Shown piece by piece: positions 6,697-58,221 of a DNA stretch of 64,000 bases. Within the stretch, counting starts at the first letter, position 1; each line of letters starts with the position of its first letter. The DNA is from a virus: IMG/VR virus record IMGVR_UViG_3300043410_001708, positions 1 through 64,000 of that record, one strand, 5' to 3'. The position numbers were made by a program, and so were the translations under genes. Below the pieces are notes generated by a model that searched no databases, was not told where the DNA came from, and saw only the letters and a program-made list of their open reading frames with translations.

Positions 6697-6849
6697 TTAA
6701 TCTCCTAGAGCAGCAATTTGCGACAAAATCGCTTTTTTCTCGTCCTTACGACTGTATTTTACGACATTTTTGTGAGCCTGCACCGGTTTAATTGGTGTAC
6801 GACACACAGGACGTTGTAATTTTACAACAAAACTCATTTTCTTACTCAT
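6697..6849 (-). CDS. small basic protein (50 aa)
   Basis: MSKKMSFVVKLQRPVCRTPIKPVQAHKNVVKYSRKDEKK...; GAGG SD. Confidence 0.5.
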   Translation of the reverse strand: MSKKMSFVVKLQRPVCRTPIKPVQAHKNVVKYSRKDEKKAILSQIAALGD

Positions 6850-7205: not shown

Positions 7206-7258
7206 ATTATACACCATTTATCAAAGAGTGTCAATAGTTGTGTTGTTAATCTACAACA
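7206..7258 (-). promoter_or_regulatory. sigma70 early promoter with upstream TGTTGT-N6-ACAACA palindrome
   Basis: TTGACA-17-TATAAT; palindrome 7241-7258 lies 6 bp upstream of -35. Confidence 0.85.
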
Positions 7259-45686: not shown

Positions 45687-46460
45687 TTGTTACATAGAAT
45701 TTTTATTATACTGTTATTTTTTACCCTACTTCTTGGCCAACAAACAGTCAAAGCAGAATTCTTTACCGCCAAATCCTGGCTTGTGTCGGATTTAAATGGC
45801 ACTATAATAGATGGTGAAGATTATGATAAGGTTAGACCAATTGCTAGCATAACAAAATTGTTAACAGTTATGGTTGTGATGGACACAAAACCTGACATGA
45901 ATCAAATGTTGATGTTGACCACAAAAATACAAGATAAATTGCCAGCAAAAAATCAAAGTGTCAGTAGAGGAAATTTAGTACTGATGGCTATAGTACACAG
46001 TAGTAACAGAGCCGCATATACTCTGTGTGAGAATTATCCTGGTGGTATGCCCGCTTGTATTAAAGCAATGAATGACAAGTTGAAAAAATTAAAAATGGAA
46101 AATTCCATTGTTTATGAACCAACAGGTTTAGATAAAAGAAACGTTAGCACTGCAAGAGAACTCATAACATTAACAAAGGCAGCGGCTGAATATGAATCCA
46201 TAGTTTATGCTAGCCGTAAGTCTGAAATAAAAATACAAGTAAAAAAGAAATGGTTTGTTTTTCGTAATACAAACCCTATGATTGGTCATTACCAAAATAT
46301 CGTAGTAAGTAAAACTGGATTTATAAATGAATCGGGTGGATGTATCACGTTGTTACTTGATACAAGTGTTGGTGATAGAATAGTTGTGGTTCTTGGCAGT
46401 AAGAACACTAAGACTAGAATTCCTGAAGCGGAATTTATATATGAGGTGTATAAAGATTAG
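45687..46460 (+). CDS. D-Ala-D-Ala peptidase, peptidase S11 (PBP7/PbpG-like)
   Basis: SITK, SSN, KTG motifs; signal peptide; TTG start after GGAG. Confidence 0.9.
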   Translation: MLHRIFIILLFFTLLLGQQTVKAEFFTAKSWLVSDLNGTIIDGEDYDKVRPIASITKLLTVMVVMDTKPDMNQMLMLTTKIQDKLPAKNQSVSRGNLVLMAIVHSSNRAAYTLCENYPGGMPACIKAMNDKLKKLKMENSIVYEPTGLDKRNVSTARELITLTKAAAEYESIVYASRKSEIKIQVKKKWFVFRNTNPMIGHYQNIVVSKTGFINESGGCITLLLDTSVGDRIVVVLGSKNTKTRIPEAEFIYEVYKD

Positions 46461-46533
46461 TGGTTGCGGGTCACGGAGTTGCACCGGAACTGAGGATTAT
46501 GAGCCCACTGTGATACTATTTCACCAACCCGCT
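46461..46533 (-). tRNA. tRNA-Met(CAT), initiator-like
   Basis: Cloverleaf, CT-CAT-AA, GGG anticodon stem, 1:72 mismatch, CCA. Confidence 0.75.
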
Positions 46534-46720
46534 ATATTTCTTGTTTTTTCTGACGTTGAAGATTTTGTTCTAAAATTCTGTCAAATTCTTCTTGTTCAGC
46601 TTTAGCATCTTCTATTTCTTTTGGTGATGGTTTTCTAAAAATCTTGTCGTAGTTATTAGCAAATGTTTCCTGTGAAACACTAAATGGTCTTGGACTAGAA
46701 CCTTTACCACCATCAGACAT
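46532..46720 (-). CDS. hypothetical protein
   Basis: GGKGS.PRP motif. Confidence 0.65.
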   Translation of the reverse strand: MSDGGKGSSPRPFSVSQETFANNYDKIFRKPSPKEIEDAKAEQEEFDRILEQNLQRQKKQEI

Positions 46721-46722
46721 AT

Positions 46723-46968
46723 TTATTCTCCGTAGATATAAGCAATATCTTCAATCTTCACTACAAAATAATCTTGCACTGTTACAGCTTTACCCCAATC
46801 TGGTTGCACCACATCACCAATCTGTAACTCAGTAACATCTGGTCCAACTGCAAGTACTTTTGCTCTATCAGGTTCTTCGGAGTGTCTTAGGATGATTCCT
46901 GAAGCGGTCTGTTTAACATTCTCAAGCCGTTCAATCAATACTTTATCGTGCAAGGGTTTAATATTCAT
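46723..46968 (-). CDS. groES: GroES-like co-chaperonin
   Basis: KPLHDKVLI, TASGIIL, VLAVGP; GAGGA SD. Confidence 0.85.
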   Translation of the reverse strand: MNIKPLHDKVLIERLENVKQTASGIILRHSEEPDRAKVLAVGPDVTELQIGDVVQPDWGKAVTVQDYFVVKIEDIAYIYGE

Positions 46969-46981
46969 AATGTCCTCAAAA

Positions 46982-47048
46982 TGGAGCGGTCTTCTGCTTT
47001 GCTCAGATAACACAAGGGGGTGCCTTGTATCGTACTATTACAAACCGC
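46982..47048 (-). ncRNA. atypical tRNA-Gly-like RNA
   Basis: GCGGTTT/AGACCGC acceptor + TCCA; aberrant D, anticodon and T arms. Confidence 0.6.
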
Positions 47049-47054
47049 ATTAAA

Positions 47055-47128
47055 TGGAGCGGGATATCAGAATCGAACTGATGACGAAAGATTGGAAATC
47101 TCTAGTTTTGCCATTAAACTAATCCCGC
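47055..47128 (-). tRNA. tRNA-Gly(TCC)
   Basis: Cloverleaf, TT-TCC-AA, CCA. Confidence 0.92.
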
Positions 47129-47175
47129 ATATAACTATATATGCATCATTTTAAAACACACATAATGCATTTTAA

Positions 47176-47198
47176 AATGAGGACTCTTGCGAGTCCCC
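47176..47198 (-). terminator. terminator-like hairpin
   Basis: GGGGACTC-GCAA-GAGTCCTC-ATTTT. Confidence 0.5.
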
Positions 47199-47204
47199 AT
47201 ACCA

Positions 47205-48632
47205 TCACAATACTTTGTAACGGTCATCCATGATGGTTTTAAGCATCACAGATTCTGGTGTAAAGGTTTCTAAGTCACCCGCCAACAGTGGTTTTACGAC
47301 TGCTGGTGAGAAACCAGATACCAATGCAGTACCAGAAGTGTCGAACTTTACTGGAGCGTTGCCGTATGCGGCATTCAAGTTCCAGAATACAACCTTTGGC
47401 AAAGTGTATCCTGCTTCTTTGTACTTACGTGCAATCATCTGCATAGCAGAGTCATCATGTCTAACGCAAGCGTTAAATTGCATGTCTGACAGAATCAATA
47501 CCATCGCTGGCATTTCTTCTTGTGGCACGCCACCTTTTACTGCTACATCAAGGATTTTTGCAAATGCCTTGTGTAGGTCGGTAGACATACCCCAATCAGA
47601 TTTAACCATTTGGTCAATCTTTTGATTGATGTTACCTTTCAAGTGCAACAATTCTGGATTGGTAGAGAAAGTTAGGAAGGTGTCCTTGAACTTGCCTTCA
47701 TTCTTATCTGCCAAGTATAGTCCCAAAGAGACTGCTACTTCCAAACAGGTTAGACCTGATTTGGAACCATAACCACCTGCAGCGCAGGTCATTGAACCAG
47801 AAACATCCACCAAAGGTAGAATGTTTGCATCGCCAACAAAGTTAGGCAAAGCCTCCCATTGTTTTTGCACCAAGTCCAATTCGGTCTTGTCGAATTTCAT
47901 GTAACCACCGATACGGCCTTTCAGCACATCGTATGGGAACACAGCACCTGCATTAACCTTAACTTCTGGATTATCACCCTTAACCAACGAAGCAACATAT
48001 GCTGCATAAGTTGGAGTGTTACGGTTAAAAGCCTTCTTGTAACGGGATGCCGCTACGGAAGGTACGTGTGAGAAATTGATGGAATCCCAGTCTTTCGCAC
48101 ACATTTGAGTTTCAACCACTTTGGTCATTTCAACCAAAGACTTACGGTAAAACTTTGGGGACATACCAAAGAACTGACGGATTTCAGCCGCTAGTTTACC
48201 TTGGCGAGGAGTCCACTTTGCAGCCAATCCATTCTTCGCACGAAGCGCATCACCCAACATAGTGAATGCTGCTGACTTCATAACATCAGAATCGAATACA
48301 AAAATGTCGTCCCAACGGCCCAATTCAGGAACCTTTGTCAACAATGCTTTTGCGGCTTCTACGTCATTCTTTTCCAAATAACGCAAGATAGTACGGAACG
48401 ATTCACGTTCACCGGCACCACCACGAGCATCACGTAACCAAGCAGCAACACGCAAAGCGAGTTCACGGTTTTCTGCCATTGCAGCTGCGAAAGCAGGCAC
48501 AATGTTTTTGCCACGGGAAGCACCTGCATTGTAGAACAAATCTACAACTGCATTAGCAGTGGACTTACGAGCCTTCATACCGTTTGCGGTACGGGCATCT
48601 TGATTAACAACGGCATCTACAAAAGTTGACAT
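47205..48632 (-). CDS. DUF2828-family vWA protein (TROVE/Ro60-like)
   Basis: RDARGGAGER, GRWDD, AAKW.PR, DVSGSM, SDMQF, FWNL, SGFSP. Confidence 0.8.
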   Translation of the reverse strand: MSTFVDAVVNQDARTANGMKARKSTANAVVDLFYNAGASRGKNIVPAFAAAMAENRELALRVAAWLRDARGGAGERESFRTILRYLEKNDVEAAKALLTKVPELGRWDDIFVFDSDVMKSAAFTMLGDALRAKNGLAAKWTPRQGKLAAEIRQFFGMSPKFYRKSLVEMTKVVETQMCAKDWDSINFSHVPSVAASRYKKAFNRNTPTYAAYVASLVKGDNPEVKVNAGAVFPYDVLKGRIGGYMKFDKTELDLVQKQWEALPNFVGDANILPLVDVSGSMTCAAGGYGSKSGLTCLEVAVSLGLYLADKNEGKFKDTFLTFSTNPELLHLKGNINQKIDQMVKSDWGMSTDLHKAFAKILDVAVKGGVPQEEMPAMVLILSDMQFNACVRHDDSAMQMIARKYKEAGYTLPKVVFWNLNAAYGNAPVKFDTSGTALVSGFSPAVVKPLLAGDLETFTPESVMLKTIMDDRYKVL

Positions 48633-48653
48633 AACTTACTCCTCATAAAAAAA

Positions 48654-48773
48654 CAACAGAATACATTTTTTAGCGCACTACCAATTGTGCTATTCACGCC
48701 GAAGCGTAAAACAGGATTCGAACCTGTAACCTCTCCGTTATAAGCGGAAAAATTGTTTGCTGTGAGTATTCTA
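48654..48773 (-). ncRNA. Y-RNA-like element 1 (permuted tRNA module)
   Basis: AGAATAC-tca-CAGCA...GTATTCT-GTTG enclosing anticodon, T, closed acceptor and D arms. Confidence 0.75.
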
Positions 48774-48777
48774 AAAA

Positions 48778-48933
48778 CAACAGGTTAGCTTTCTACTTTT
48801 TGTTTACAGTGAGAAATCGAAACTCACCTTCGTTAGGACCATTTCAATAAACACCTTCAAAGGTCGAAACCTCCAGTGTTTACCATAGTTACCTAACAGT
48901 TCAGTATTATTGAATAATGCTGTAACTAACCTA
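48778..48933 (-). ncRNA. Y-RNA-like element 2
   Basis: AGGTTAG-tta-CAGCA...CTAACCT-GTTG; two TTCGA T-loop-like hairpins. Confidence 0.7.
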
Positions 48934-48961
48934 AAACCTTTTCAATCTTTCAATACTGTGT

Positions 48962-49014
48962 ATTGTAACACAAAAATTTGTTGTAGTCAAGCAGTATGTT
49001 GTAAACATACCACA
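48962..49014 (-). promoter_or_regulatory. sigma70 promoter with upstream palindrome
   Basis: TTGACT-17-TACAAT; TGTTGT-N6-ACCACA 6 bp upstream. Confidence 0.75.
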
Positions 49015-49019
49015 ATATT

Positions 49020-49093
49020 TGGTGCCCCATGACAGAATCGAACTGCCGTACCCGGATTACAAAACCGGTGTAATACCATTATACTAATAGGGC
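49020..49093 (-). tRNA. tRNA-Thr(TGT)
   Basis: Cloverleaf, CCA. Confidence 0.92.
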
Positions 49094-49101
49094 AAAAAAC
49101 T

Positions 49102-49176
49102 TGGAGCGGGTAGTGGGAATCGAACCCACAACTAAACCTTGGCAAGGTCTTGTGTTACCACTAGCACCATACCCGC
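49102..49176 (-). tRNA. tRNA-Gly(GCC)
   Basis: Cloverleaf, CCA. Confidence 0.92.
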
Positions 49177-49185
49177 ATCATGTGT

Positions 49186-49214
49186 ATTATATATGCTTTA
49201 CAAACAATTGTCAA
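49186..49214 (-). promoter_or_regulatory. sigma70 promoter
   Basis: TTGACA-17-TATAAT. Confidence 0.8.
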
Positions 49215-49234
49215 GCACATTTTTAAAAAATATT

Positions 49235-49318
49235 TGGTACGAGTAACCGGAGTCGAACCGGTACGCACAAGGCGGCAGATTTTAAGTCTGCTGGGTCTAC
49301 CAATTCCCCCATACTCGC
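49235..49318 (-). tRNA. tRNA-Leu(TAA)
   Basis: Type II cloverleaf. Confidence 0.92.
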
Positions 49319-49319
49319 A

Positions 49320-49904
49320 TCACATGGCAGGTCCGTTTCCATTACGGAAACCGACCTCACCACCTTCTTCTTTGATTCGTTTCATAACATCTTCAAAAAG
49401 AATAGGACGAAAATCTGTTTGTTCAACACAAACACAATGATAACGAACATCTGGTGTGTCCAGTTCTTGACCTCCGTTCCATGTCATCATCACACGACCT
49501 GTATGAAGGTGACCGTGAATGTTTGTTCCGAAACGACCAAGACTGGCGGGATGAATTGGAATATGTGAAAGAATCATTCCGTTCATTACATGATACGCAC
49601 GAAGTTCACGGAAGTGTATTCTATATTCATCATCACGGAAGATATCGTGGTTACCACGAATAAGAACTTTATCACCGTTAAGTCTATGCATAATGCTAAG
49701 TGCTTTACGATTGATTACAACATCACCAAGATGATATACTTTATCAGTTGGCTTTACTGTTTCGTTCCAACGCTTAACCATTTCTTCATCCATTTCATTT
49801 GGATCGGTCCATGGTCTAATCTTTTCACCTGTTATGGAGTCGGTGAATCTACACACACCAGCGTGACCAAAGTGTGTGTCACTTACTAAAAATACTGATG
49901 GCAT
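49320..49904 (-). CDS. calcineurin-like metallophosphoesterase
   Basis: SDTHFGH, LGD, GNHD, HGHLH; AGGAG SD before ATG 49904. Confidence 0.9.
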   Translation of the reverse strand: MPSVFLVSDTHFGHAGVCRFTDSITGEKIRPWTDPNEMDEEMVKRWNETVKPTDKVYHLGDVVINRKALSIMHRLNGDKVLIRGNHDIFRDDEYRIHFRELRAYHVMNGMILSHIPIHPASLGRFGTNIHGHLHTGRVMMTWNGGQELDTPDVRYHCVCVEQTDFRPILFEDVMKRIKEEGGEVGFRNGNGPAM

Positions 49905-49922
49905 AATAAACTCCTGAAAAAA

Positions 49923-49997
49923 TGGCCCGGCGTGAGGGAATCGAACCCCCATTCGCACTTTAGAAGAATGCTGTCCTATCCATTGAACGAACGCCAG
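49923..49997 (-). tRNA. tRNA-Arg(TCT)
   Basis: Cloverleaf, CCA. Confidence 0.9.
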
Positions 49998-50002
49998 AAA
50001 AA

Positions 50003-50443
50003 TCATACTCGGATGTATTCGTAATTAACTGTTTCTTCATTTTCTCTAAAAACAATAGCGCCGTTCTTCAAGTGAAAACGCTTTGCCATTTCAGTTTTTG
50101 GAGATAATGTCACAAATCTTTTTATGTATGGCATATTATTTTCTATGTGTGATACTGCATCAAATATAAGTGTTCCACCAGCACCTGGTGCATAACTCCA
50201 TATTGTATAAAATACCGCAATCTCTGGATCGTTTACCTTTTCAAACAATTCAGATTCTTTTGTCGGAACATTTGTCTGATAACTTACGCATGTGATTGCT
50301 AATACTTTACCATTTGTATCCCGAAGAACAAAAATATCTTTGTTATTACCTACTCTTTCCGTAGTTGGAATGTTAGGCCTGACAGGATCTTCATCCAATA
50401 AATTAAAAAAACTATCTGTGATGGATTTTATAATATGTAACAT
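50003..50443 (-). CDS. GNAT-fold-like hypothetical protein
   Basis: FYTIWSY..GAG, VTLSP, A.RFH.KNG. Confidence 0.6.
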   Translation of the reverse strand: MLHIIKSITDSFFNLLDEDPVRPNIPTTERVGNNKDIFVLRDTNGKVLAITCVSYQTNVPTKESELFEKVNDPEIAVFYTIWSYAPGAGGTLIFDAVSHIENNMPYIKRFVTLSPKTEMAKRFHLKNGAIVFRENEETVNYEYIRV

Positions 50444-50459
50444 GATAACTTAAATATAA

Positions 50460-50536
50460 TGGTGCCCCAGAGGAGACTCGAACTCCTAAAATTTGGTTTC
50501 TAAGACCAACACGTATACCAATTCCGTCACCGGGGC
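50460..50536 (-). tRNA. tRNA-Leu(TAG), short variable loop
   Basis: Cloverleaf, CT-TAG-AA. Confidence 0.85.
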
Positions 50537-50549
50537 AATAAATACTTAT

Positions 50550-50774
50550 ATGATACCTTACGAACAAAGACAAACAGTAAAACCACTTTATGAGTTATTC
50601 TCAAATGAAACATATGTGCCTCATGCTTATTATTGTATTGAATCTGATTTTATCGAATCATATGTTACTGAGATAAAATCTTTTAATGATGATGAAATAT
50701 ATATTCAACCTGAAAAAGAGTTTGTCTTAACAACATTAAAACAAGTTGGTGCTCCTACTAAGAATCGAACTTAG
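50550..50774 (+). CDS. hypothetical protein antisense to tRNA array
   Basis: AATAAATA late-like promoter immediately before ATG 50550. Confidence 0.5.
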   Translation: MIPYEQRQTVKPLYELFSNETYVPHAYYCIESDFIESYVTEIKSFNDDEIYIQPEKEFVLTTLKQVGAPTKNRT

Positions 50775-50820
50775 GATACATCCTTACCATGGATGTGGTA
50801 TGCCATTTACCTATAAGAGC
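50747..50820 (-). tRNA. tRNA-Thr(GGT)
   Basis: Cloverleaf. Confidence 0.9.
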
Positions 50821-50825
50821 ATGAT

Positions 50826-50900
50826 TGGTGGGTCGTCAGAGAATCAAACTCTGTTCTTCCGGTTAAGAGCCGGTTGCTTCATCACTTAAGCTTACAACCC
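50826..50900 (-). tRNA. tRNA-Lys(CTT)
   Basis: Cloverleaf. Confidence 0.88.
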
Positions 50901-50903
50901 ATA

Positions 50904-50980
50904 TGGTACCCAAGGTGGGATTCGAGCCCACATAATCTTGCTTTTGAGACAAGCACGTATACCAATTCCGTCACTTGGGT
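50904..50980 (-). tRNA. tRNA-Leu(CAA), short variable loop
   Basis: Cloverleaf, CT-CAA-AA. Confidence 0.85.
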
Positions 50981-50985
50981 ATATA

Positions 50986-51087
50986 CAACAGGATAGTTTT
51001 TTTACAGTGGGAATTGAACCCACAAGGTTTGCTTAGAAGGCAAATTGCGAACCATTCGCATGTGAATTTTTTGCTGAACCTATCCTA
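50986..51087 (-). ncRNA. Y-RNA-like element 3 (D, anticodon UCU and T arms inside)
   Basis: AGGATAG-gtt-CAGCA...CTATCCT-GTTG. Confidence 0.75.
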
Positions 51088-51092
51088 AAACT

Positions 51093-51168
51093 TGGTGCTG
51101 CCTAGTAGAATCGAACTACTTTCCGAGGTTCTTCAGACCCCTGCTATGACCACATCAGCTAAAGCAGC
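51093..51168 (-). tRNA. tRNA-Phe(GAA)
   Basis: Cloverleaf. Confidence 0.92.
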
Positions 51169-51176
51169 ATATTGAA

Positions 51177-51343
51177 TTTGTAAGTATTGGGACCTCCCTC
51201 ATTTCCCAACATTTTACCGGTATTTTCTGTGAAGCGGCCGACCGGTTAGAGGTACGTAGTAATAGTTGATACTTGGCATCGGCAAAGCACTATCCTCATT
51301 CTTGTATGCCTACAAAAACTTTCTCAACATCTACACTTACAAA
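51177..51343 (-). ncRNA. unknown structured RNA
   Basis: 11-bp closing stem, several internal helices. Confidence 0.5.
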
Positions 51344-51346
51344 ACT

Positions 51347-51421
51347 TGGTACCTTGTGACGGGATCGAACCGCCGACCTTCTCCTTGTAAGGGAGACACT
51401 CTACCGCTGAGTTAACAAGGC
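51347..51421 (-). tRNA. tRNA-Val(TAC)
   Basis: Cloverleaf. Confidence 0.93.
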
Positions 51422-51434
51422 ATAAAATTTACTT

Positions 51435-51509
51435 TGGGGAGATATATGAGAATCGAACTCATGATAACGGAATCACAACCCGTGGTTTTGCCACTAAACT
51501 AATATCTCC
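51435..51509 (-). tRNA. tRNA-His(GTG)
   Basis: G-1:C73, cloverleaf. Confidence 0.92.
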
Positions 51510-51557
51510 CCAAAGTAAACTTTGGAATTTTTAACCGTGTTTATTCACGGGGGTCTG

Positions 51558-52046
51558 TTAGACCTGCAAAGCTTCTTGTTCTGCCAAGATTCTTTTCAAT
51601 CTGTCAGCACAAAAACTTGCAGCTGGTGCGTCTGGTTTAACCATAGGTGTCATGTTACATGTACCCTTGATATAACCAATCGCTTGTTGTACAACACATG
51701 AACTTCCGTACAAGTCATCTTTGTTTAAGTCCAAATGAACTTCAACATGGAAATCTTCTAATACATCAGCCAAGTCTTGGAACAATTCTGAAACCTTATA
51801 CACTTCGGTCATTAACCGCATTGCAGGTTTACTTTTCTTATGGTCATAATCCAACTCACGTTGAACGAAACCAAAAATCTTACAACCATGGCGGCCATCA
51901 ATATGAACTACGACAGCCAAAGCATAGTCTGCATACCATACACCGTTTACACGGATACGTTCTGAGTCAGCACCCAAATATACTTTCGTATCTGGTCCTT
52001 GACTTGCAAGGAATTGCTTAACTTCTTGTATGTCGAACTTTTTCAT
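51558..52046 (-). CDS. RNase H-like YkuK (DUF458) family protein
   Basis: YLGADSE, RLMTEV..S, EVHLD, KP.A.AAS..AD; AGAAAGG SD. Confidence 0.8.
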   Translation of the reverse strand: MKKFDIQEVKQFLASQGPDTKVYLGADSERIRVNGVWYADYALAVVVHIDGRHGCKIFGFVQRELDYDHKKSKPAMRLMTEVYKVSELFQDLADVLEDFHVEVHLDLNKDDLYGSSCVVQQAIGYIKGTCNMTPMVKPDAPAASFCADRLKRILAEQEALQV

Positions 52047-52076
52047 ATCAATCACCTTTCTTTTTTTTACTAACAC

Positions 52077-52150
52077 TGGCATCCCGACAGGGACTCGAAC
52101 CCCGACCAACAGTTTTGGAGACTGGTATGCTGCCATTACACTATCGAGAT
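52077..52150 (-). tRNA. tRNA-Trp(CCA)
   Basis: Cloverleaf. Confidence 0.92.
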
Positions 52151-52156
52151 ATAATA

Positions 52157-52220
52157 CAACAGGATAGATTTTACTTTTCAAGTTACAAGTTTGAAGTATT
52201 TTATTGCTGTTACTATCCTA
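52157..52220 (-). ncRNA. Y-RNA-like element 4 (minimal)
   Basis: AGGATAG-taa-CAGCA...CTATCCT-GTTG. Confidence 0.7.
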
Positions 52221-52224
52221 AAAA

Positions 52225-52298
52225 TGGTCCTCAGAACAAGAATCGAACTTGTGATGGCCGGTTATCAGCCGACTGTTATACCATTTAACTATCCGAGG
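52225..52298 (-). tRNA. tRNA-Ile(GAT)
   Basis: Cloverleaf. Confidence 0.92.
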
Positions 52299-52302
52299 AA
52301 TA

Positions 52303-52378
52303 TGGAGGGTCTTGAGGGATTCAAACCCCCGACCAATTGCTTCGTAGGCAACTACTCTGTTCACTGAGCTAAAGACCC
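52303..52378 (-). tRNA. tRNA-Arg(ACG)
   Basis: Cloverleaf. Confidence 0.9.
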
Positions 52379-52384
52379 ATAATC

Positions 52385-52459
52385 TGGTGGTTCAGGTGAG
52401 AATCGAACTCACACAAGGCACCGTATGAAGATGCTGCACTGCCACTATGCTACTGAACC
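52385..52459 (-). tRNA. tRNA-Met(CAT), elongator-like
   Basis: TT-CAT-AC loop. Confidence 0.85.
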
Positions 52460-52464
52460 AAATT

Positions 52465-52539
52465 TGGTGGACCGAGGGGGAATCGAACCCCCAACTGTGA
52501 CTTGCAAGGCCACTGTGTTCCCAATTATACCATCAGCCC
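52465..52539 (-). tRNA. tRNA-Ala(TGC)
   Basis: G3:U70, cloverleaf. Confidence 0.93.
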
Positions 52540-52595
52540 AAATTTGTTGTTGACAATTTATCTCATTATACGCCGTCAACAAAGGCGAGTATTAC

Positions 52596-52669
52596 TGGTC
52601 TCGGTGGCAAGAATCGAACTTGCGCCACATGCTCCCAAAGCACGGATGATACCATTTCACCACACCGAG
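52596..52669 (-). tRNA. tRNA-Pro(TGG)
   Basis: Cloverleaf. Confidence 0.92.
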
Positions 52670-52675
52670 AAAATA

Positions 52676-52739
52676 CAACAGGATCGTTTTTGTCGCTAGA
52701 CATCCAAAAGTTAGCTTGTTTATTGCTGAACCGATCCTA
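52676..52739 (-). ncRNA. Y-RNA-like element 5 (minimal)
   Basis: AGGATCG-gtt-CAGCA...CGATCCT-GTTG. Confidence 0.7.
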
Positions 52740-52743
52740 AAAC

Positions 52744-52818
52744 TGGCTCCACAGGCAGGGATCGAACCTACGACCAATTGATTAACAGTCAACTGCACTA
52801 CCGCTGTGCTACTGTGGA
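52744..52818 (-). tRNA. tRNA-Asn(GTT)
   Basis: Cloverleaf. Confidence 0.93.
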
Positions 52819-52825
52819 ATATATC

Positions 52826-52900
52826 TGGCGGTCCCAAGGGGTAACGATCCCCTTCTTTATGCGTGACAGGCATACGTGCGTCCATGAACACTTTGAGACC
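52826..52900 (-). tRNA. tRNA-Asp(GTC)
   Basis: Cloverleaf, non-canonical T loop. Confidence 0.88.
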
Positions 52901-52904
52901 AAAT

Positions 52905-53096
52905 ATTAGTACAAGCTACTGATTTTCCACGTCAGCCCTTGATTGAGCGGTTTCTCTGTCCATCCCTTTTATCTGGTACCTGTGTGCAGAGGGATACTGC
53001 CTATCAGAGCCTGAGTATTTCTCTCGCTAACGGTTTTCTGCCACCGGATCTCTATCGTTAATCAAACGCTACTTTAACGAAAAGTAGTAACGAGAT
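52905..53096 (-). ncRNA. unknown structured RNA (~190 nt)
   Basis: Multiple nested helices in a gene-free spacer. Confidence 0.5.
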
Positions 53097-53097
53097 T

Positions 53098-53184
53098 TGG
53101 TGGAGACGGTGTGAGTCGAACACACAATGCCCTGAGGGCGGCGGATTTACAGTCCACTGGGGTTACCAATTTTCCTACATCTCC
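53098..53184 (-). tRNA. tRNA-Tyr(GTA)
   Basis: Type II cloverleaf. Confidence 0.92.
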
Positions 53185-53192
53185 AAATTTTT

Positions 53193-53267
53193 TGGTAGGG
53201 GCACAGAGAATCGAACTCTGATTATCTGGTTAAAAGCCAGGTACTTTCGCCGTTAAGTTATACCCCC
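53193..53267 (-). tRNA. tRNA-Lys(TTT)
   Basis: Cloverleaf. Confidence 0.9.
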
Positions 53268-53273
53268 ATAATT

Positions 53274-53401
53274 TACCATTTGTTTTGCTGACGCACTATA
53301 TGCTATGCTTCAACGGAATAGCTGCAGCGTTACCGTTTATTAACATAGTTACTCAGCATTGAACGTTTCTGCTGTGGCTTACATCAGCAAAACAAATGGT
53401 A
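53274..53401 (-). ncRNA. structured RNA closed by perfect 18-bp inverted repeat
   Basis: TACCATTTGTTTTGCTGA...TCAGCAAAACAAATGGTA. Confidence 0.55.
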
Positions 53402-53471
53402 CACCTAAGGAGAATCGAACTCCTCTTTCCGCCTTGAAAGGGCAGCGTCCTAACCGATAGACGATAGGTGC
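53397..53471 (-). tRNA. tRNA-Glu(TTC)
   Basis: Cloverleaf. Confidence 0.92.
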
Positions 53472-53474
53472 AAA

Positions 53475-53500
53475 AAACTACAACAAATTTTTAAAGAACA
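53475..53500 (-). promoter_or_regulatory. boxA-like antitermination element (copy 2)
   Basis: TGTTCTTTAAAAATTTGTTGTAGTTT identical to 54344-54369. Confidence 0.7.
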
Positions 53501-53528
53501 TTTGATTGATTTCTCAATTCATAGATGA

Positions 53529-53581
53529 AGTATAACACAACCATGAATCTCTGTCAACCAGTGTGTTGTATTTCTACAACG
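53529..53581 (-). promoter_or_regulatory. sigma70 promoter with upstream palindrome
   Basis: TTGACA-17-TATACT; TGTTGT-N6-ACAACG 6 bp upstream. Confidence 0.8.
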
Positions 53582-53585
53582 TGTT

Positions 53586-53661
53586 TGGAGTAGGTGACAG
53601 GAATCGAACCTGCATACAAGTGGTTTGCAATCACTTCCCTAGCCTTTCGGGTCACACCTAC
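53586..53661 (-). tRNA. tRNA-Cys(GCA)
   Basis: U73, cloverleaf. Confidence 0.9.
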
Positions 53662-53897
53662 ACTAATTTTTTCCTTGAACTACGGTGTGTTTCATCACGC
53701 CGCATAGTCCAATCGTAAGAGTTACCATCTGGTAACTTCTTATCTTTAACTTCATCATATCCAAACTTACCAACGAATTCCATTTCACCATTAGTGATTG
53801 TTACGAATTCGTTAACAGTCTTGGCAAAGAACATTGCACCTGACAATGTTTCATGTTTCCATTCTTTCAATTTTGTTTTTACTATCCACATACTCAT
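53658..53897 (-). CDS. hypothetical protein
   Basis: VGKFG.D.V....LPDG..YDW. Confidence 0.65.
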   Translation of the reverse strand: MSMWIVKTKLKEWKHETLSGAMFFAKTVNEFVTITNGEMEFVGKFGYDEVKDKKLPDGNSYDWTMRRDETHRSSRKKLV

Positions 53898-53905
53898 CTT
53901 TCATT

Positions 53906-53997
53906 TGGTACCAGCGGTGAGAATCGAACTCACTCAAGAACGCTAATCTGGCGCTAAAAGGTGTATAAGACCTCTCTGACTACCAAGTCTCGCTGGC
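53906..53997 (-). tRNA. atypical tRNA with UAU anticodon and long variable arm
   Basis: Canonical acceptor/T arm, mini D arm, CT-TAT-AC loop. Confidence 0.7.
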
Positions 53998-53999
53998 AT

Positions 54000-54089
54000 T
54001 GGTGGAGAGTCAGGGAGTCGAACCCTGTGACCTACTTTCGTAAATCTACGGATTAGCAATCCGCTGCATTACCATCCTGCCCACTCTCC
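54000..54089 (-). tRNA. tRNA-Ser(GCT)
   Basis: Type II cloverleaf. Confidence 0.92.
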
Positions 54090-54095
54090 GAATTT

Positions 54096-54185
54096 TGGTG
54101 GAAGCGGTGAGATTCGAACTCACGGACCCTTTCGGATCGGCAGTTTTCAAGACTGCTGCAATAAACCGGACTCTGCCACACTTCC
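54096..54185 (-). tRNA. tRNA-Ser(TGA)
   Basis: Type II cloverleaf. Confidence 0.92.
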
Positions 54186-54264
54186 ATATAGAAACACACT
54201 ACTGGCTATACACTCAGCGTCCCAAGTGCTACCAGAATCTAACTGGCGTAATGTGTTTTTATAT
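54186..54264 (-). ncRNA. branched hairpin RNA between tRNA-Gln and tRNA-Ser
   Basis: 17-bp closing stem, two internal hairpins. Confidence 0.5.
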
Positions 54265-54339
54265 GGCAGGGGTTATCAGATTCGAACTGATGATGACGAT
54301 TTCAAAGACCGTTGCCTTAGGCCACTAGGCGAAACCCCA
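54264..54339 (-). tRNA. tRNA-Gln(TTG)
   Basis: Cloverleaf. Confidence 0.9.
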
Positions 54340-54343
54340 ACAT

Positions 54344-54369
54344 AAACTACAACAAATTTTTAAAGAACA
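54344..54369 (-). promoter_or_regulatory. boxA-like antitermination element (copy 1)
   Basis: TGTTCTTTAAAA vs rrn boxA TGCTCTTTAACA. Confidence 0.7.
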
Positions 54370-54376
54370 AGTGTGT

Positions 54377-54428
54377 ATTGTAACAGAACCAAAGGTCCTG
54401 GCAACTACACTGTTGTATTGAAACAACA
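54377..54428 (-). promoter_or_regulatory. sigma70 promoter with upstream palindrome
   Basis: TTGCCA-16-TACAAT with extended -10 TG; TGTTGT-N6-ACAACA 6 bp upstream. Confidence 0.65.
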
Positions 54429-54431
54429 AAC

Positions 54432-54463
54432 AAAAAACCCTAGTAGATTTCTCTTACTAGGGT
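54432..54463 (-). terminator. attenuator terminator
   Basis: ACCCTAGTAAGA-GAAA-TCTACTAGGGT followed by T run. Confidence 0.85.
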
Positions 54464-54496
54464 CTTGTGTTTGGAGTCTTTTTTAGAACTTCTGTT

Positions 54497-54610
54497 TTAG
54501 TTCTCCATCTTCACACAAAACCCGGTTGCAATCGCCCATGAGCTATCAGCGCAATTAACTGTGCGATACTCTGGTTGCAACGTAAAGGGTTTATGAGATA
54601 TGAGAGACAC
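54497..54610 (-). CDS. putative attenuator leader peptide (37 aa, all 20 amino acids; not in ORF track)
   Basis: GTG start after AGAAAG; MSLISHKPFTLQPEYRTVNCADSSWAIATGFCVKMEN; 3' end pairs with terminator 5' arm. Confidence 0.7.
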   Translation of the reverse strand: MSLISHKPFTLQPEYRTVNCADSSWAIATGFCVKMEN

Positions 54611-54640
54611 TTTTTTCTTTCTAAAATTTAATATATGTGT

Positions 54641-54669
54641 ATTATATAGGAACTTTTTAACCTCGGCAA
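54641..54669 (-). promoter_or_regulatory. sigma70 promoter of leader
   Basis: TTGCCG-17-TATAAT. Confidence 0.7.
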
Positions 54670-54682
54670 GCGGTTTTTGAAA

Positions 54683-55216
54683 TTATTTTTTGAATCCTTG
54701 AAAAAATAATTCGGGAGTATCATTTGTTTCAAACTTATAAGAATGAAACATACTATCTATATCAAAGTTAGTACGAAAATCTTCTTCTGTAAGATTCTTG
54801 TAATATTCCCAACCTTTACCGACAGTCAGTGGACTATCTTCTGGTTTTGCATTTGATGTACCATGTTCAGGTGCACCAGTTGTCGGTACAGTAATGAAAA
54901 CTAATCCGTCTTTTTTGGTCATGCGATACATGTTTTGAAATGTTTCAACCCAAAATGGATTGTGTTCAAAACAATTACATGAACCTGTTGTATCGTATGT
55001 GCCGTCTGAATGGTCAACTAATTGACCCTCGCAAACTAAATCAACACTAGGTCCTTCAGCAACATCAACGCCAGTATAATCACAGTCTTTAAAATGACTT
55101 CTCATAGTACCATTGATATCTAAACTACCAACTTCTAAAACTTTTGCGTTATTGAAGTTTTGTGGAAATTGTTTTGACAAATTTCTAACATATTCTTGTT
55201 GTGCTGGATGTGACAT
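54683..55216 (-). CDS. SAM-dependent methyltransferase
   Basis: VLEVGSLDING, GVD, FEH.P.W, EHGT. Confidence 0.8.
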   Translation of the reverse strand: MSHPAQQEYVRNLSKQFPQNFNNAKVLEVGSLDINGTMRSHFKDCDYTGVDVAEGPSVDLVCEGQLVDHSDGTYDTTGSCNCFEHNPFWVETFQNMYRMTKKDGLVFITVPTTGAPEHGTSNAKPEDSPLTVGKGWEYYKNLTEEDFRTNFDIDSMFHSYKFETNDTPELFFQGFKK

Positions 55217-55219
55217 AAT

Positions 55220-55726
55220 TTATTTCTTCCATAATATTGGTGACTCAATAATTGGTGCAGACGGGTTAACAAAATCATCAAATGTTTCCCACAAATGTTC
55301 TGATATTGCAAACTTTGTAATCAATCCTGGTTCACGGCCATAGGCATCTATCTCCCATGGTTGAATCCAATAATCAATTTTGTCTGGATCAATTCTCTTT
55401 CCTCTCCATCGGGTCAATTCATCGTTAGTTTCACCTTCAATGTATTGTTTCACATGAACCATTTCATGTGCCAATGTTTCTAAAATCTTCCTAGAACCAA
55501 TATGTGGATGAATCTCTATCAAAAATTTTCGAGGTTGATTTCGTGTATTGTAATCTTCAATACTAGCAAAACCATATTCATCTATTTTGGTACTAAAAAG
55601 GATTTGTGTGGTGCAATTGTTTCTTATTCGTGTATTGGGTATCAATTCTTTAGCATAAAAATGGGCGGCTCTTTCAACAAAGGGCTTAAAATCTTTATCC
55701 GGACAGTTAACCACACGAATAATCAT
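55220..55726 (-). CDS. HExxH metallopeptidase-like protein
   Basis: TLAHEMVHVKQY, PWEIDAY. Confidence 0.8.
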   Translation of the reverse strand: MIIRVVNCPDKDFKPFVERAAHFYAKELIPNTRIRNNCTTQILFSTKIDEYGFASIEDYNTRNQPRKFLIEIHPHIGSRKILETLAHEMVHVKQYIEGETNDELTRWRGKRIDPDKIDYWIQPWEIDAYGREPGLITKFAISEHLWETFDDFVNPSAPIIESPILWKK

Positions 55727-55769
55727 CCTAGTCTCCTAAGGGCAACATTACCCTTAGTTATTTAGATGA

Positions 55770-56222
55770 TTAGATTTTTTCTACTAAAACTTTTGCCTTT
55801 TGTAAAAACTTAATACCATCATCACTCCGATAAGAGTTCCGATATAGAATGTGGTTAATACCACTTTGGTATATAAGTTTGGCACAGTCCAAACATGGAG
55901 CATGGGTAATAAACATAGTAGCACCCATACCAGATTCGTTAGACTTAGCCAACTTGGCAATGGCGTTAGTTTCTGCATGTAATACCTCCGGGCGTGTAAC
56001 TAAAATATCTTTCTTTTCTACAGGCTGGCATGTTTCAGGATCCATTACATACGGATGCGTTTCACAGTTATTGTCCCAACCAGCCGGCATACCATTGTAG
56101 CCAATAGAAATAATCCTATCTTCTTTGACTACAATGGCACCTACATGAAGTCTACGTGCTGAGGATAATTCTGCGAACACCTCAGCAGTTTTCATATACG
56201 CATCACGAAATTTTTGTTTCAC
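55770..56222 (-). CDS. cd: dCMP deaminase
   Basis: GYNG, HAE.NAI, PCLDC. Confidence 0.92.
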   Translation of the reverse strand: MKQKFRDAYMKTAEVFAELSSARRLHVGAIVVKEDRIISIGYNGMPAGWDNNCETHPYVMDPETCQPVEKKDILVTRPEVLHAETNAIAKLAKSNESGMGATMFITHAPCLDCAKLIYQSGINHILYRNSYRSDDGIKFLQKAKVLVEKI

Positions 56223-56353
56223 AGGACCTCGTAATCTTCTTTACCGCAGCCACATTCAGGACAAGTAAAGTCATCAGGTAATGTATTCCATGCACCCTCT
56301 GTTGCTTCATCATGTTCATGTCCACAAACTACACATACGTGTACTTCACTCAT
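56219..56353 (-). CDS. rubredoxin (44 aa, not in ORF track)
   Basis: CVVCG...W..LPDDFTCPECG. Confidence 0.85.
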   Translation of the reverse strand: MSEVHVCVVCGHEHDEATEGAWNTLPDDFTCPECGCGKEDYEVL

Positions 56354-56802
56354 TATAGTTCTCCTAATTTTTGTTGATATGCAGCTGCATGACGTTTTTC
56401 AATTTTGGATAATGCAGCAAAACGTTTTTCTGCCTTACGTAGGATATCAGAAAATTGTTCTGCGTGTATTTTTGATTCTTCAATTTGATGGCGAGCTTCC
56501 AATGAGGCAGATAAATTGCCTTCTGTTTTTGCATCAATTTCAAATTGTGGATACATTGTAGTGAATTCGTATGTCTCACCTTCAATGGCTTTCTCCAAAC
56601 ATTCTTTAGTTGATGGTTTACCAATTAACAATTCCAAATGACCCCATGCATGAAGTAACTCTTGGTCTGCTGTATGTTCAAAGTGTTTTGCAACATCTTC
56701 AAAACCTTCTTCTCGAGCAATCTTCGCAAAGTAACGATATTTGATATGTGCTTGACTTTCTCCAGCCAAGGCACTCTCAAGGTTTTTAATTGTAATTGAC
56801 AT
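56353..56802 (-). CDS. rubrerythrin (ferritin-like domain only)
   Basis: ALAGESQA..KY, E..HA, GETYE...MYP, E..H. Confidence 0.9.
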   Translation of the reverse strand: MSITIKNLESALAGESQAHIKYRYFAKIAREEGFEDVAKHFEHTADQELLHAWGHLELLIGKPSTKECLEKAIEGETYEFTTMYPQFEIDAKTEGNLSASLEARHQIEESKIHAEQFSDILRKAEKRFAALSKIEKRHAAAYQQKLGEL

Positions 56803-56820
56803 AATACTCCTTAATAAAAA

Positions 56821-56895
56821 TGGTGGGCCCACTAGGAATTGAACCTAGACTCAATGAATTATGAGTTCACTGCTTTACCATTAAGCTATAGGCCC
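56821..56895 (-). tRNA. tRNA-Ile2(CAT) (probably lysidine-modified)
   Basis: GGGCCT acceptor, CT-CAT-AA. Confidence 0.8.
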
Positions 56896-57077
56896 TATTT
56901 GATATATTCTAACGAATCTTTTCTCATTAATTTAGGTGTTTCCCTAATACCAATGTTTTTAATTACGTAAACGAAAGTAACACCATCAATTTCTTTAGTC
57001 TCTGGTGAACAGACGTAGTAATTCTCCATCGTGGTTTTTACACGAACTTTTTTGATGTATTGTTTTTCAGTTTTCAT
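56895..57077 (-). CDS. hypothetical protein (probably leaderless)
   Basis: ATG 57077 at predicted TSS of promoter 57084-57112. Confidence 0.55.
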   Translation of the reverse strand: MKTEKQYIKKVRVKTTMENYYVCSPETKEIDGVTFVYVIKNIGIRETPKLMRKDSLEYIK

Positions 57078-57083
57078 AATACT

Positions 57084-57123
57084 ATTATAAAGGTAAAAAA
57101 AGAGGTTGTCAAGCAACCTCTTT
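57084..57123 (-). promoter_or_regulatory. terminator hairpin overlapping a sigma70 promoter
   Basis: AGAGGTTG-CTTGA-CAACCTCT-TTTTT containing TTGACA-17-TATAAT. Confidence 0.7.
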
Positions 57124-57189
57124 ACTATTACCGGAACTTTTCAGGATAATTTAGTCGTTCCCACTCCTCATCGGAGACAGGCCACCAAT

Positions 57190-57636
57190 TCATTCTTTTT
57201 CCTTAATAGCAATTTTCTTAATGGCGTCTTGTGTTTTGACCATATTTTCTAGCCAAATTTTAAGCATACCATTCATTAGTTCCGCATCTTTGATTTCTAC
57301 TTTATCTGCGAGAGTAAAGGTACGTTCAAATGCACGGTTGGCAATGCCTTTGTACAGATAATCTTCAGATTCATCATCTTTAGATGCAGCTTTAATTACA
57401 AGTTTGTTTCCTTCCAAAGTCATTTCAATATCAGACTTAGCAAAACCAGCAACAGCCATTTCAATGACGTACTTGTTTTCTTTTACCTGTTTGATGTTGT
57501 ATGGAGGATAAGATACGGCTTTAGTTGCAGCCGTTGCAGCTTCACGCATAAGTTCCAATGTATCATTGAATCCTACTGTGAATGGTTGAATTTTACCAAA
57601 ATCAGAACCGAAAAAATCTTTCATAAGATTTGTCAT
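57190..57636 (-). CDS. small heat-shock protein (Hsp20/IbpA-like)
   Basis: YPPYNI, AVAGF, YKGIA.R.F.R.F.L, NG.L.I. Confidence 0.93.
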   Translation of the reverse strand: MTNLMKDFFGSDFGKIQPFTVGFNDTLELMREAATAATKAVSYPPYNIKQVKENKYVIEMAVAGFAKSDIEMTLEGNKLVIKAASKDDESEDYLYKGIANRAFERTFTLADKVEIKDAELMNGMLKIWLENMVKTQDAIKKIAIKEKE

Positions 57637-57783
57637 GTGTTTCTCCTAAAAGCGAGATTAAAAAATTGATACCCCGAAGGCGTATCGGTTGAGTTACTGG
57701 TTACGGGATCCAGTGTCACCCTATCGTTGTGACCGCTTTAAACGCTCCTAAGGTAGGTGGAGCACCTTCTTCCCATCCCTGGG
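57637..57783 (-). promoter_or_regulatory. structured 5' leader with ROSE-like thermometer hairpin
   Basis: UCUC-G-CU-UUU-AG-GAGA over SD plus several upstream hairpins. Confidence 0.6.
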
Positions 57784-57788
57784 AACTT

Positions 57789-57817
57789 ATTATATCAGTA
57801 TTTATACTAGTTGTCAA
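57789..57817 (-). promoter_or_regulatory. nested sigma70 and T4 late promoters
   Basis: TTGACA-17-TATAAT with TATAAATA in the spacer. Confidence 0.8.
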
Positions 57818-58221
57818 GAACCGTTCGGTTTTTTACCAATATTATACTTTGGTGTAAGTTGCCAGTCATTCTTTTCCTTGTGTGACAATATTTTAATCTG
57901 TGACAAGAAAATAGGTGCTGGCACCTCAGTTTGTTTTTTGTTGACCAACTTTACTAAACCCCAATCTTCCAATAGGTTTGCAATAGCATTCCTACGTGAT
58001 AGGTCATTTTCGGTAATGTCGGTTGGTTTACCATCTAAGGCAAATAGTTCTTTGAAATGTACCACATAGTATTGTCCACGTTTGTGGAGAATGTGGCAAG
58101 ATTGGTATAATGTTTGGTCTTTCTTTGAGGCAACACCGATACGGGTCAGTGTTTCACGTACCTTTAGAAAATCATCTTTGTCATCCAATGTCACTTCAAC
58201 TAAGTCTTTAATGTCTATCAT
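57814..58221 (-). CDS. regA: translational repressor RegA
   Basis: FLKVRETLTRIG, QSCHILHK.G.YY.VHFKE. Confidence 0.95.
   Translation of the reverse strand: MIDIKDLVEVTLDDKDDFLKVRETLTRIGVASKKDQTLYQSCHILHKRGQYYVVHFKELFALDGKPTDITENDLSRRNAIANLLEDWGLVKLVNKKQTEVPAPIFLSQIKILSHKEKNDWQLTPKYNIGKKPNGS

Follow-up and report, generated by a model that had tools for sequence, protein, structure and literature searches.

Why phages carry tRNA genes, and how the expression of these genes is timed, have been debated for decades. The tRNA region of an uncultured T4-like freshwater phage raises this question in a concrete form: are the short open reading frame (ORF) and the terminator in front of its tRNA array a switch that ties tRNA output to the speed of decoding? 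The genome of this phage is a 106-kb contig, and its DNA polymerase is approximately 50% identical to cyanomyovirus DNA polymerases. The window analyzed here is the whole stretch of 64,000 nucleotides that was examined (positions 1 to 64,000 of IMG/VR record IMGVR_UViG_3300043410_001708), and all coordinates refer to it. ARAGORN identifies an array of 27 tRNA genes, covering all 20 amino acids, which extends from tRNA-Gln to 47055.

An initial annotation of the window had interpreted the region in front of this array as a leader-peptide attenuator with a leader containing all amino acids. The promoter, the ORF, the antiterminator pairing, the terminator, and the tRNA array were all located where it had placed them. 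The separate promoter that it reported directly before tRNA-Gly(gcc) is present at 49214-49186, as is a bypass promoter ending at 54377 (54404-54377), between the terminator and tRNA-Gln. The element consists of the following parts.

54641-54669, minus strand: promoter P1 of the sigma-70 type, with the -35 hexamer at 54669-54664 and the -10 hexamer at 54646-54641 (10 of 12 consensus matches)
54622-54617, minus strand: weak Shine-Dalgarno motif, read from the sequence
54497-54610, minus strand: leader ORF with a GTG start at 54610 and a stop codon at 54499-54497 (37 codons, all 20 amino acids)
54587-54595, minus strand: segment 1 (codons 6-8), pairing with segment 2 as anti-antiterminator, from minimum-energy folds and covariation
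54524-54581, minus strand: central hairpin within the ORF (codons ~10-29), from folds and from compensatory changes seen by eye in alignments
54503-54523, minus strand: segment 2 (codons 30-36), the 5' strand of the antiterminator, which can pair with segment 1 or segment 3
54460-54476, minus strand: segment 3, the 3' strand of the antiterminator
54431-54463, minus strand: intrinsic terminator (stem 54463-54437, T run to ~54431), present in all homologs
54377-54427, minus strand: palindrome (54427-54412), then bypass promoter P2 (-35 at 54404-54399, -10 at 54382-54377)
54353-54369, minus strand: boxA-like 17-mer directly downstream of P2, with an identical copy at 53500-53484, after the next promoter
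54264-54339, minus strand: tRNA-Gln(ttg), the first gene of the array (ARAGORN)

Transcription from P1 is predicted to start near 54634, and both P1 hexamers are invariant or almost so in 12 aligned relatives. The leader ORF has 33 distinct codons among its 36 post-start codons. The central hairpin overlaps the best conserved part of the leader peptide, and a short hairpin surrounds the leader stop codon. Within segment 2, complementarity to segment 3 (54476-54460) covers 54523-54513 plus 54507-54503, and the last four bases of segment 3 (54463-54460) are also the base of the terminator 5' arm. The predicted leader transcript folds far better than shuffled sequences (z = -6.2, 0/200). A scan of positions 46000-58000 against Rfam with E-values up to 1 returned only tRNA-type and chance matches, with no family in the leader region (54430-54640) and no T-box, and the leader peptide matched no family in Pfam, NCBIfam, or PHROG.

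With moderate confidence, we interpret the sequence of this element as a ribosome-dependent (leader-peptide) transcription attenuator that heads the tRNA array and senses general decoding speed. The P1 transcript of approximately 200 nt would carry the short translated ORF, and segment 2 could pair either with segment 1, in the early ORF, or with segment 3, which follows the stop codon. Either the absence of a ribosome or a ribosome that has reached the ORF end and sits over segment 2 would allow the terminator to form, and transcription would stop at ~54431. A ribosome held earlier in the ORF would let segments 2 and 3 pair; the base of the terminator would then be lost, and polymerase would enter the tRNA genes. 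As almost all 20 amino acids are maintained in the ORF, tRNA output would go up when codons of nearly any class are decoded slowly, and would go down again once decoding recovers. We infer the direction of the switch, how wide its sensing window is, and its physiological signal; slow decoding by ribosomes probably leads the phage to produce more tRNA.

In this genome by itself, the presence of all 20 amino acids in the leader is not statistically significant. The probability that a 37-mer of independent, identically distributed residues contains all 20 is approximately 0.0016. Among the 770 small ORFs of 25-45 codons in the genome, two have all 20 amino acids, and the second of these is antisense to tRNA genes, so one such ORF could arise by chance. 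Because a single genome leaves room for chance, the case rests on comparison with relatives.

Relatives were gathered through a neighboring 168-residue protein, which yielded 80 IMG/VR loci. A hidden Markov model (HMM) of the leader region found the element in 48 of them, and a more diverged form is present in L056. In all homologs the element is just upstream of the tRNA array, which usually begins with tRNA-Gln. A second scan for related loci returned mostly the same contigs as the first. BLASTN of the leader region gave no match in 50,697 phage records, and a loose pattern scan of metagenome contigs gave chance matches; none among the matches listed fits the HMM of the element. The cultured relatives reached through the neighboring protein (Stenotrophomonas phage DLP_6 and Caulobacter phage Cr30) have no synteny with the locus, and brief inspection of the DLP_6 tRNA region revealed no small high-diversity ORF with a terminator. 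In that region (L280, positions 103314-113834 of the DLP_6 record), approximately 36 tRNA genes are interleaved with annotated small coding sequences whose ends are 7-12 nt short of a tRNA; the first such sequence directly follows a promoter-like site, and no terminators were seen on that strand.

Relatives with only 1-5 tRNA genes have a different unit in place of the leader. Eight loci without the leader (L043, L068, L071, L076, L079, L044, L062, and L067) have a strong promoter in the 300-450 nt after the neighbor gene. The promoter is followed by a conserved tRNA-like RNA of approximately 75 nt, whose ends pair and whose tail is CCA-like, then by a small basic ORF of approximately 55-60 codons, and then by the first tRNA.

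If the leader acts through a ribosome, its ORF should be kept in relatives, as the initial annotation had expected. It is open in all 48 diverged homologs despite drift of the peptide, has 25-43 codons, and ends at or just behind segment 2. A start signal, either a leaderless ATG or a start codon led by a Shine-Dalgarno motif, is present in 49 of 49 sequences. In the leaderless arrangement (28 loci), the ATG follows the -10 hexamer by 3-7 nt, which would place the transcript start at or beside the start codon. Leaderless translation generally requires AUG, and the start codon in these loci, which is always ATG, fits this requirement. The Shine-Dalgarno arrangement (21 loci, including the window) has a leader of approximately 30 nt and a start codon that is ATG, GTG, or TTG. 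Spacings between three sequence anchors take nine, five, and five values that are multiples of three, apart from two groups of relatives in which an anchor is misaligned or in another frame. The untranslated spacer has no multiple-of-three bias, with positions taken from duplex calls that are unreliable because the windows for segments 2 and 3 overlap. Judged from these comparisons, the ORF is clearly under translational constraint.

Alternative pairing of the leader RNA is the other component of the proposed switch, and the antiterminator pairs were expected to covary. They do, both in permutations of duplexes and in counts on fixed alignment columns. For 43 distinct combinations of segments 2 and 3, cognate duplexes have a mean of -17.1 kcal/mol compared to -13.1 kcal/mol for permuted partners (0/20000 permutations), a comparison in which shared ancestry remains. 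On the fixed columns of a plain MAFFT alignment, 81.9% of cells pair, compared to 29-70% for slid partners, and five of ten pairs change on both sides. Both strands have changed together in several clades (for example, L039, L064, L077, L058, and L035), and in L035 the 3' arm of the terminator has changed too. The C run that doubles as the terminator base takes part in every cognate 2:3 duplex. The signal for segments 1 and 2 is weaker than that for 2:3: the cognate 5' region gives -10.6 kcal/mol and permuted regions -9.6 kcal/mol (P = 5.5e-4), and shared ancestry remains here as well. Across the homologs, covariation is seen for all three pairings of a classical four-segment attenuator (1:2, 2:3, and 3:4).

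In minimum-energy folds, most homologs adopt the 1:2 helix together with the terminator, and L004 and L001 adopt the 2:3 form, suggesting that the two states are near in energy. The effect of a ribosome was simulated by masking its footprint in an equilibrium fold, with or without the upstream RNA also masked. The terminator formed in 20 of 21 cases when no ribosome was present, and in all but one homolog when the ribosome was near the stop codon. A single footprint gave the antiterminator in most homologs, only for stalls over roughly the first 3-15 codons; when the upstream RNA was also unavailable, approximately two-thirds of the homologs formed the antiterminator up to ~10 codons before the end. 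The initial annotation had proposed sensing across codons 2-25, and the simulations agree with it if the RNA behind the ribosome cannot pair, and disagree with it otherwise. Such a block behind a stalled ribosome could come from trailing ribosomes or from steric hindrance. In about ten homologs the terminator won in every simulated state, and at these loci kinetics would have to decide.

The amino-acid content of the leader peptides is the feature that distinguishes this element. The peptides have a mean of 19.3 different amino acids in 25-43 residues, compared to 14-16.5 in composition-based nulls. All 20 amino acids are present in 24 of the 43 distinct peptides and 19 are present in another 12, and two peptides of only 31 residues are complete. 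The peptides form 12 clusters at 55% identity, almost all of which are near-complete, and the relatives therefore have the near-complete diversity despite sequence divergence that had been predicted for them. Column shuffles, which only partly correct for shared ancestry, gave a mean of 17.5-17.8 against the observed 19.3 (0/3000) and left 2.6 complete peptides in place of 24; the difference persists when each 55% identity cluster is represented by one sequence, the least complete. Residues that are lost reappear elsewhere in the peptide, as in L064, where Cys, His, and Pro are at other positions. Conserved peptide stretches coincide with RNA helices, and we read them as RNA constraint because third codon positions are conserved there too.

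In a strict window upstream of segment 2, there are 17.3 different amino acids in 25 residues, compared to a null of 13.8. Val occurs only in or next to segment 2 in 30 of the 43 peptides, and the same is often true of Gly, Trp, or His. The earlier claim was that 18 amino acids are sensed and that Gly and Met fall outside. Across the relatives, Val and Gly usually fall outside, and Trp or His often do. With Val, Gly, and sometimes Trp or His outside the strict window, the sensor would be broad-spectrum, not strictly complete.

The initial annotation had drawn attention to the variety of codons in the leader, and ideas at the codon level found little support. Codon diversity is barely above a uniform-synonymous null (mean z 0.57), so selection of synonymous codons for maximal diversity is a weak candidate, and the G/C-ending codons that had looked atypical are accounted for by RNA pairing. 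A match of leader codons to the phage tRNAs was not supported, as the readable fraction is 0.83 for the leader and 0.88 for the phage's own genes. Reduced leaders lack amino acids that correspond only loosely to those without a tRNA in the local array.

P2 bears on whether the array depends on the element. Most homologs have this good promoter approximately 27 nt downstream of the terminator. Nine lack it (L023, L021, L026, L029, L027, L031, L058, L038, and L034, the last two read from the alignment), and in these the first tRNA begins 4-14 nt after the T run. Because no promoter fits in 4-14 nt, the tRNAs of these nine loci need read-through; a terminator that separates a promoter from the only genes behind that promoter is, by position, an attenuator. 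In the window, P2 lies between the terminator and tRNA-Gln, and the array here thus does not depend on read-through. Contigs from a freshwater RNA library have a depth of 20-38 over the ORF and 10-15 across the terminator into the P2 region, and the adjacent gene has a depth of 0-5 in the same library. These contigs are a weak hint of transcription and some read-through, as ends and levels are not readable from contigs and DNA carry-over is possible. Contig ends in common at A runs look like assembly breaks.

The boxA-like 17-mer has two exact copies compared to 0.12 expected, and it is nearly invariant in relatives with P2. Its second copy (53484-53500) is just downstream of the promoter at 53557-53529. 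We presume that the 17-mer resembles rrn boxA, and it may give processive antitermination through the untranslated array. A palindrome with two 5-nt arms and a 6-nt spacer is located a few bases upstream of the -35 hexamer of two promoters in the tRNA region (54412-54427 and 53565-53580). The same palindrome is also present at 6813-6828 and 7242-7257 (four copies compared to 0.14 expected), and it could be an operator or an RNA hairpin.

Several other features were observed in and around the tRNA region. A weak Rfam match to the Y RNA-like family YrlA (48647-48759, minus strand; 36.5 bits, below the cut-off of 69) is inside the tRNA region and adjoins an ORF (47205-48632) encoding a 475-residue protein of PHROG 850 ("RNA-binding protein"). 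Three matches to the Rfam tRNA model (50829-50900, 50999-51067, and 46464-46533, minus strand; 33-50 bits) are not called by ARAGORN and may be unusual or degenerate tRNA-like genes. The tRNA-Ile(tat) gene (53906-53997, minus strand) is 92 nt long and has an odd architecture, with its best match against the tRNA-Sec model (32.6 bits, below cut-off); the ATA codon that it would read occurs in the leader. Just upstream of the element are genes for a dCMP deaminase, a rubredoxin, and a rubrerythrin (55770-56832, minus strand), and a separate tRNA-Met (56821-56895) overlaps the called start of the rubrerythrin ORF.

Any explanation has to account for what is observed at these loci, namely the parts, their conservation, the translation-type constraints, the covariation of the helices, and the enrichment in amino-acid diversity. 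P1, the ORF, and the terminator could be a unit of their own, in which the peptide of 25-43 residues acts itself (for example, on a host protein) and P2 drives the array. The promoter and terminator of the ORF, with P2 directly behind in most homologs, fit such a stand-alone gene, as do the clear translational constraint and the common peptide core visible in the alignment. However, the conserved stretches are the RNA helices (segments 1 and 2 and the central hairpin) with conserved third positions, which indicates RNA constraint, and elsewhere the peptide drifts yet stays complete by relocation, for which a folded or binding peptide would offer no reason. The covarying 2:3 helix also overlaps the terminator, nine relatives have no P2, and the peptide matches no protein family in the databases searched; we consider a stand-alone gene quite unlikely. 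A structured small RNA, possibly trans-acting, in which translation is incidental or only tunes stability, would explain the very stable fold, the high nucleotide conservation including third positions, and a discrete transcript with a terminator end that is covered by the RNA-library contigs. Attenuator RNAs with trans functions are known, such as rnTrpL (PMC6614838). A small RNA would not explain indels in multiples of three, start signals that are replaced and not lost (leaderless ATG versus Shine-Dalgarno motif and start codon), or an ORF that always ends at or just behind segment 2, and amino-acid completeness belongs to the translated reading, not to the RNA. This explanation seems to us very unlikely, and a trans role on top of attenuation is possible.

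The element could also be an attenuator that senses general translation capacity (ribosome availability, initiation, or host shut-off) and not aminoacyl-tRNA supply, with completeness partly a by-product of a high-complexity structured sequence. Such a sensor would be compatible with the narrow responsive window predicted by equilibrium folding, the amino acids outside the sensing window, leader codons that are not matched to the phage tRNAs, and a codon diversity that unbiased use of synonymous codons explains. However, approximately 14-16.5 kinds of residue come from random or structured sequence, not 19-20, and the column shuffles and the relocation of residues argue for selection on the residue set itself. 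Without any translation, moreover, the model predicts termination and not induction, and we regard a sensor of general capacity as unlikely. The central proposal of the initial annotation, a leader-peptide attenuator with an all-amino-acid leader, is supported by the conservation of the ORF, by covariation of the 2:3 and 1:2 pairs, and by the relatives without P2. It may extend to a dedicated, self-correcting circuit for tRNA supply, in which the leader would read the whole aminoacyl-tRNA pool in one pass and the array would be turned up when any tRNA is scarce, uncharged, or cleaved (for example, by tRNA-targeting defenses or host shut-off) and down on recovery. We put this extension forward tentatively, as plausible and short of likely, and a link to anticodon nucleases or other tRNA-cleaving defenses is speculation.

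Among known systems, the enterobacterial trp, his, leu, phe, thr, and ilv leaders are alike in having a promoter-proximal short ORF, alternative 1:2, 2:3, and 3:4 pairings, a terminator stem that shares bases with the antiterminator, and a stop codon close behind segment 2. The element described here has start signals near the promoter, a terminator before the genes, a 2:3 helix exclusive with the terminator, and a 1:2 helix overlapping the ORF. Sensing of more than one amino acid is already known from the thr and ilv leaders, which respond to two or three. The classical run of regulatory codons in or before segment 1 is absent here; instead, nearly every amino acid (19-20 in all) is represented by one or a few codons, which are spread over the ORF. 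The element also differs from enterobacterial leaders in that phage tRNA genes, not biosynthetic genes, lie behind it, many of its members are leaderless, and a bypass promoter often comes next. It matches none of the operon leaders in Rfam (E up to 1). T-box riboswitches are likewise terminator/antiterminator leaders tied to the charging state of tRNA. However, a T-box binds uncharged tRNA directly, needs no translation, responds to one tRNA each, and controls synthetase or amino-acid genes. A T-box would also have no use for the ORF signals present here, and no T-box was matched in the region scanned.

In Anabaena sp. PCC 7120, the trn operon is also an extra tRNA array, and its expression rises when translation is impaired (PMC8421152; PMC10272220). 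As far as the available text of the second report describes it, this operon is cellular and not of a phage, and it is controlled at its promoter by the protein repressor TrcR, with no translated leader or terminator switch (PMC10272220). Phage tRNAs have been described as a counter-defense against tRNA-cleaving immunity (PMC10264068; PMC11464382). In their available portions, these papers address the role of the tRNAs and not the control of their expression, and they mention no sensor. A full-text literature search found no published case of leader-peptide attenuation of tRNA genes and no all-amino-acid leader.

If the tentative tRNA-supply circuit is real, the element would be without precedent both as an attenuator with an all-amino-acid leader and as a translational sensor shown to control tRNA genes. 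Leader-peptide attenuation, which covers one to three amino acids in biosynthetic operons, would reach nearly all 20 and include tRNA genes. The element is approximately 200 nt long and has a sigma-70 type promoter and an intrinsic terminator, so it should be directly testable, and it could serve as a general reporter of decoding stress. The role of phage tRNAs in counter-defense gives a phage reason to tie tRNA output to the state of the tRNA pool, and phages with this element would monitor that pool instead of expressing their tRNAs blindly.
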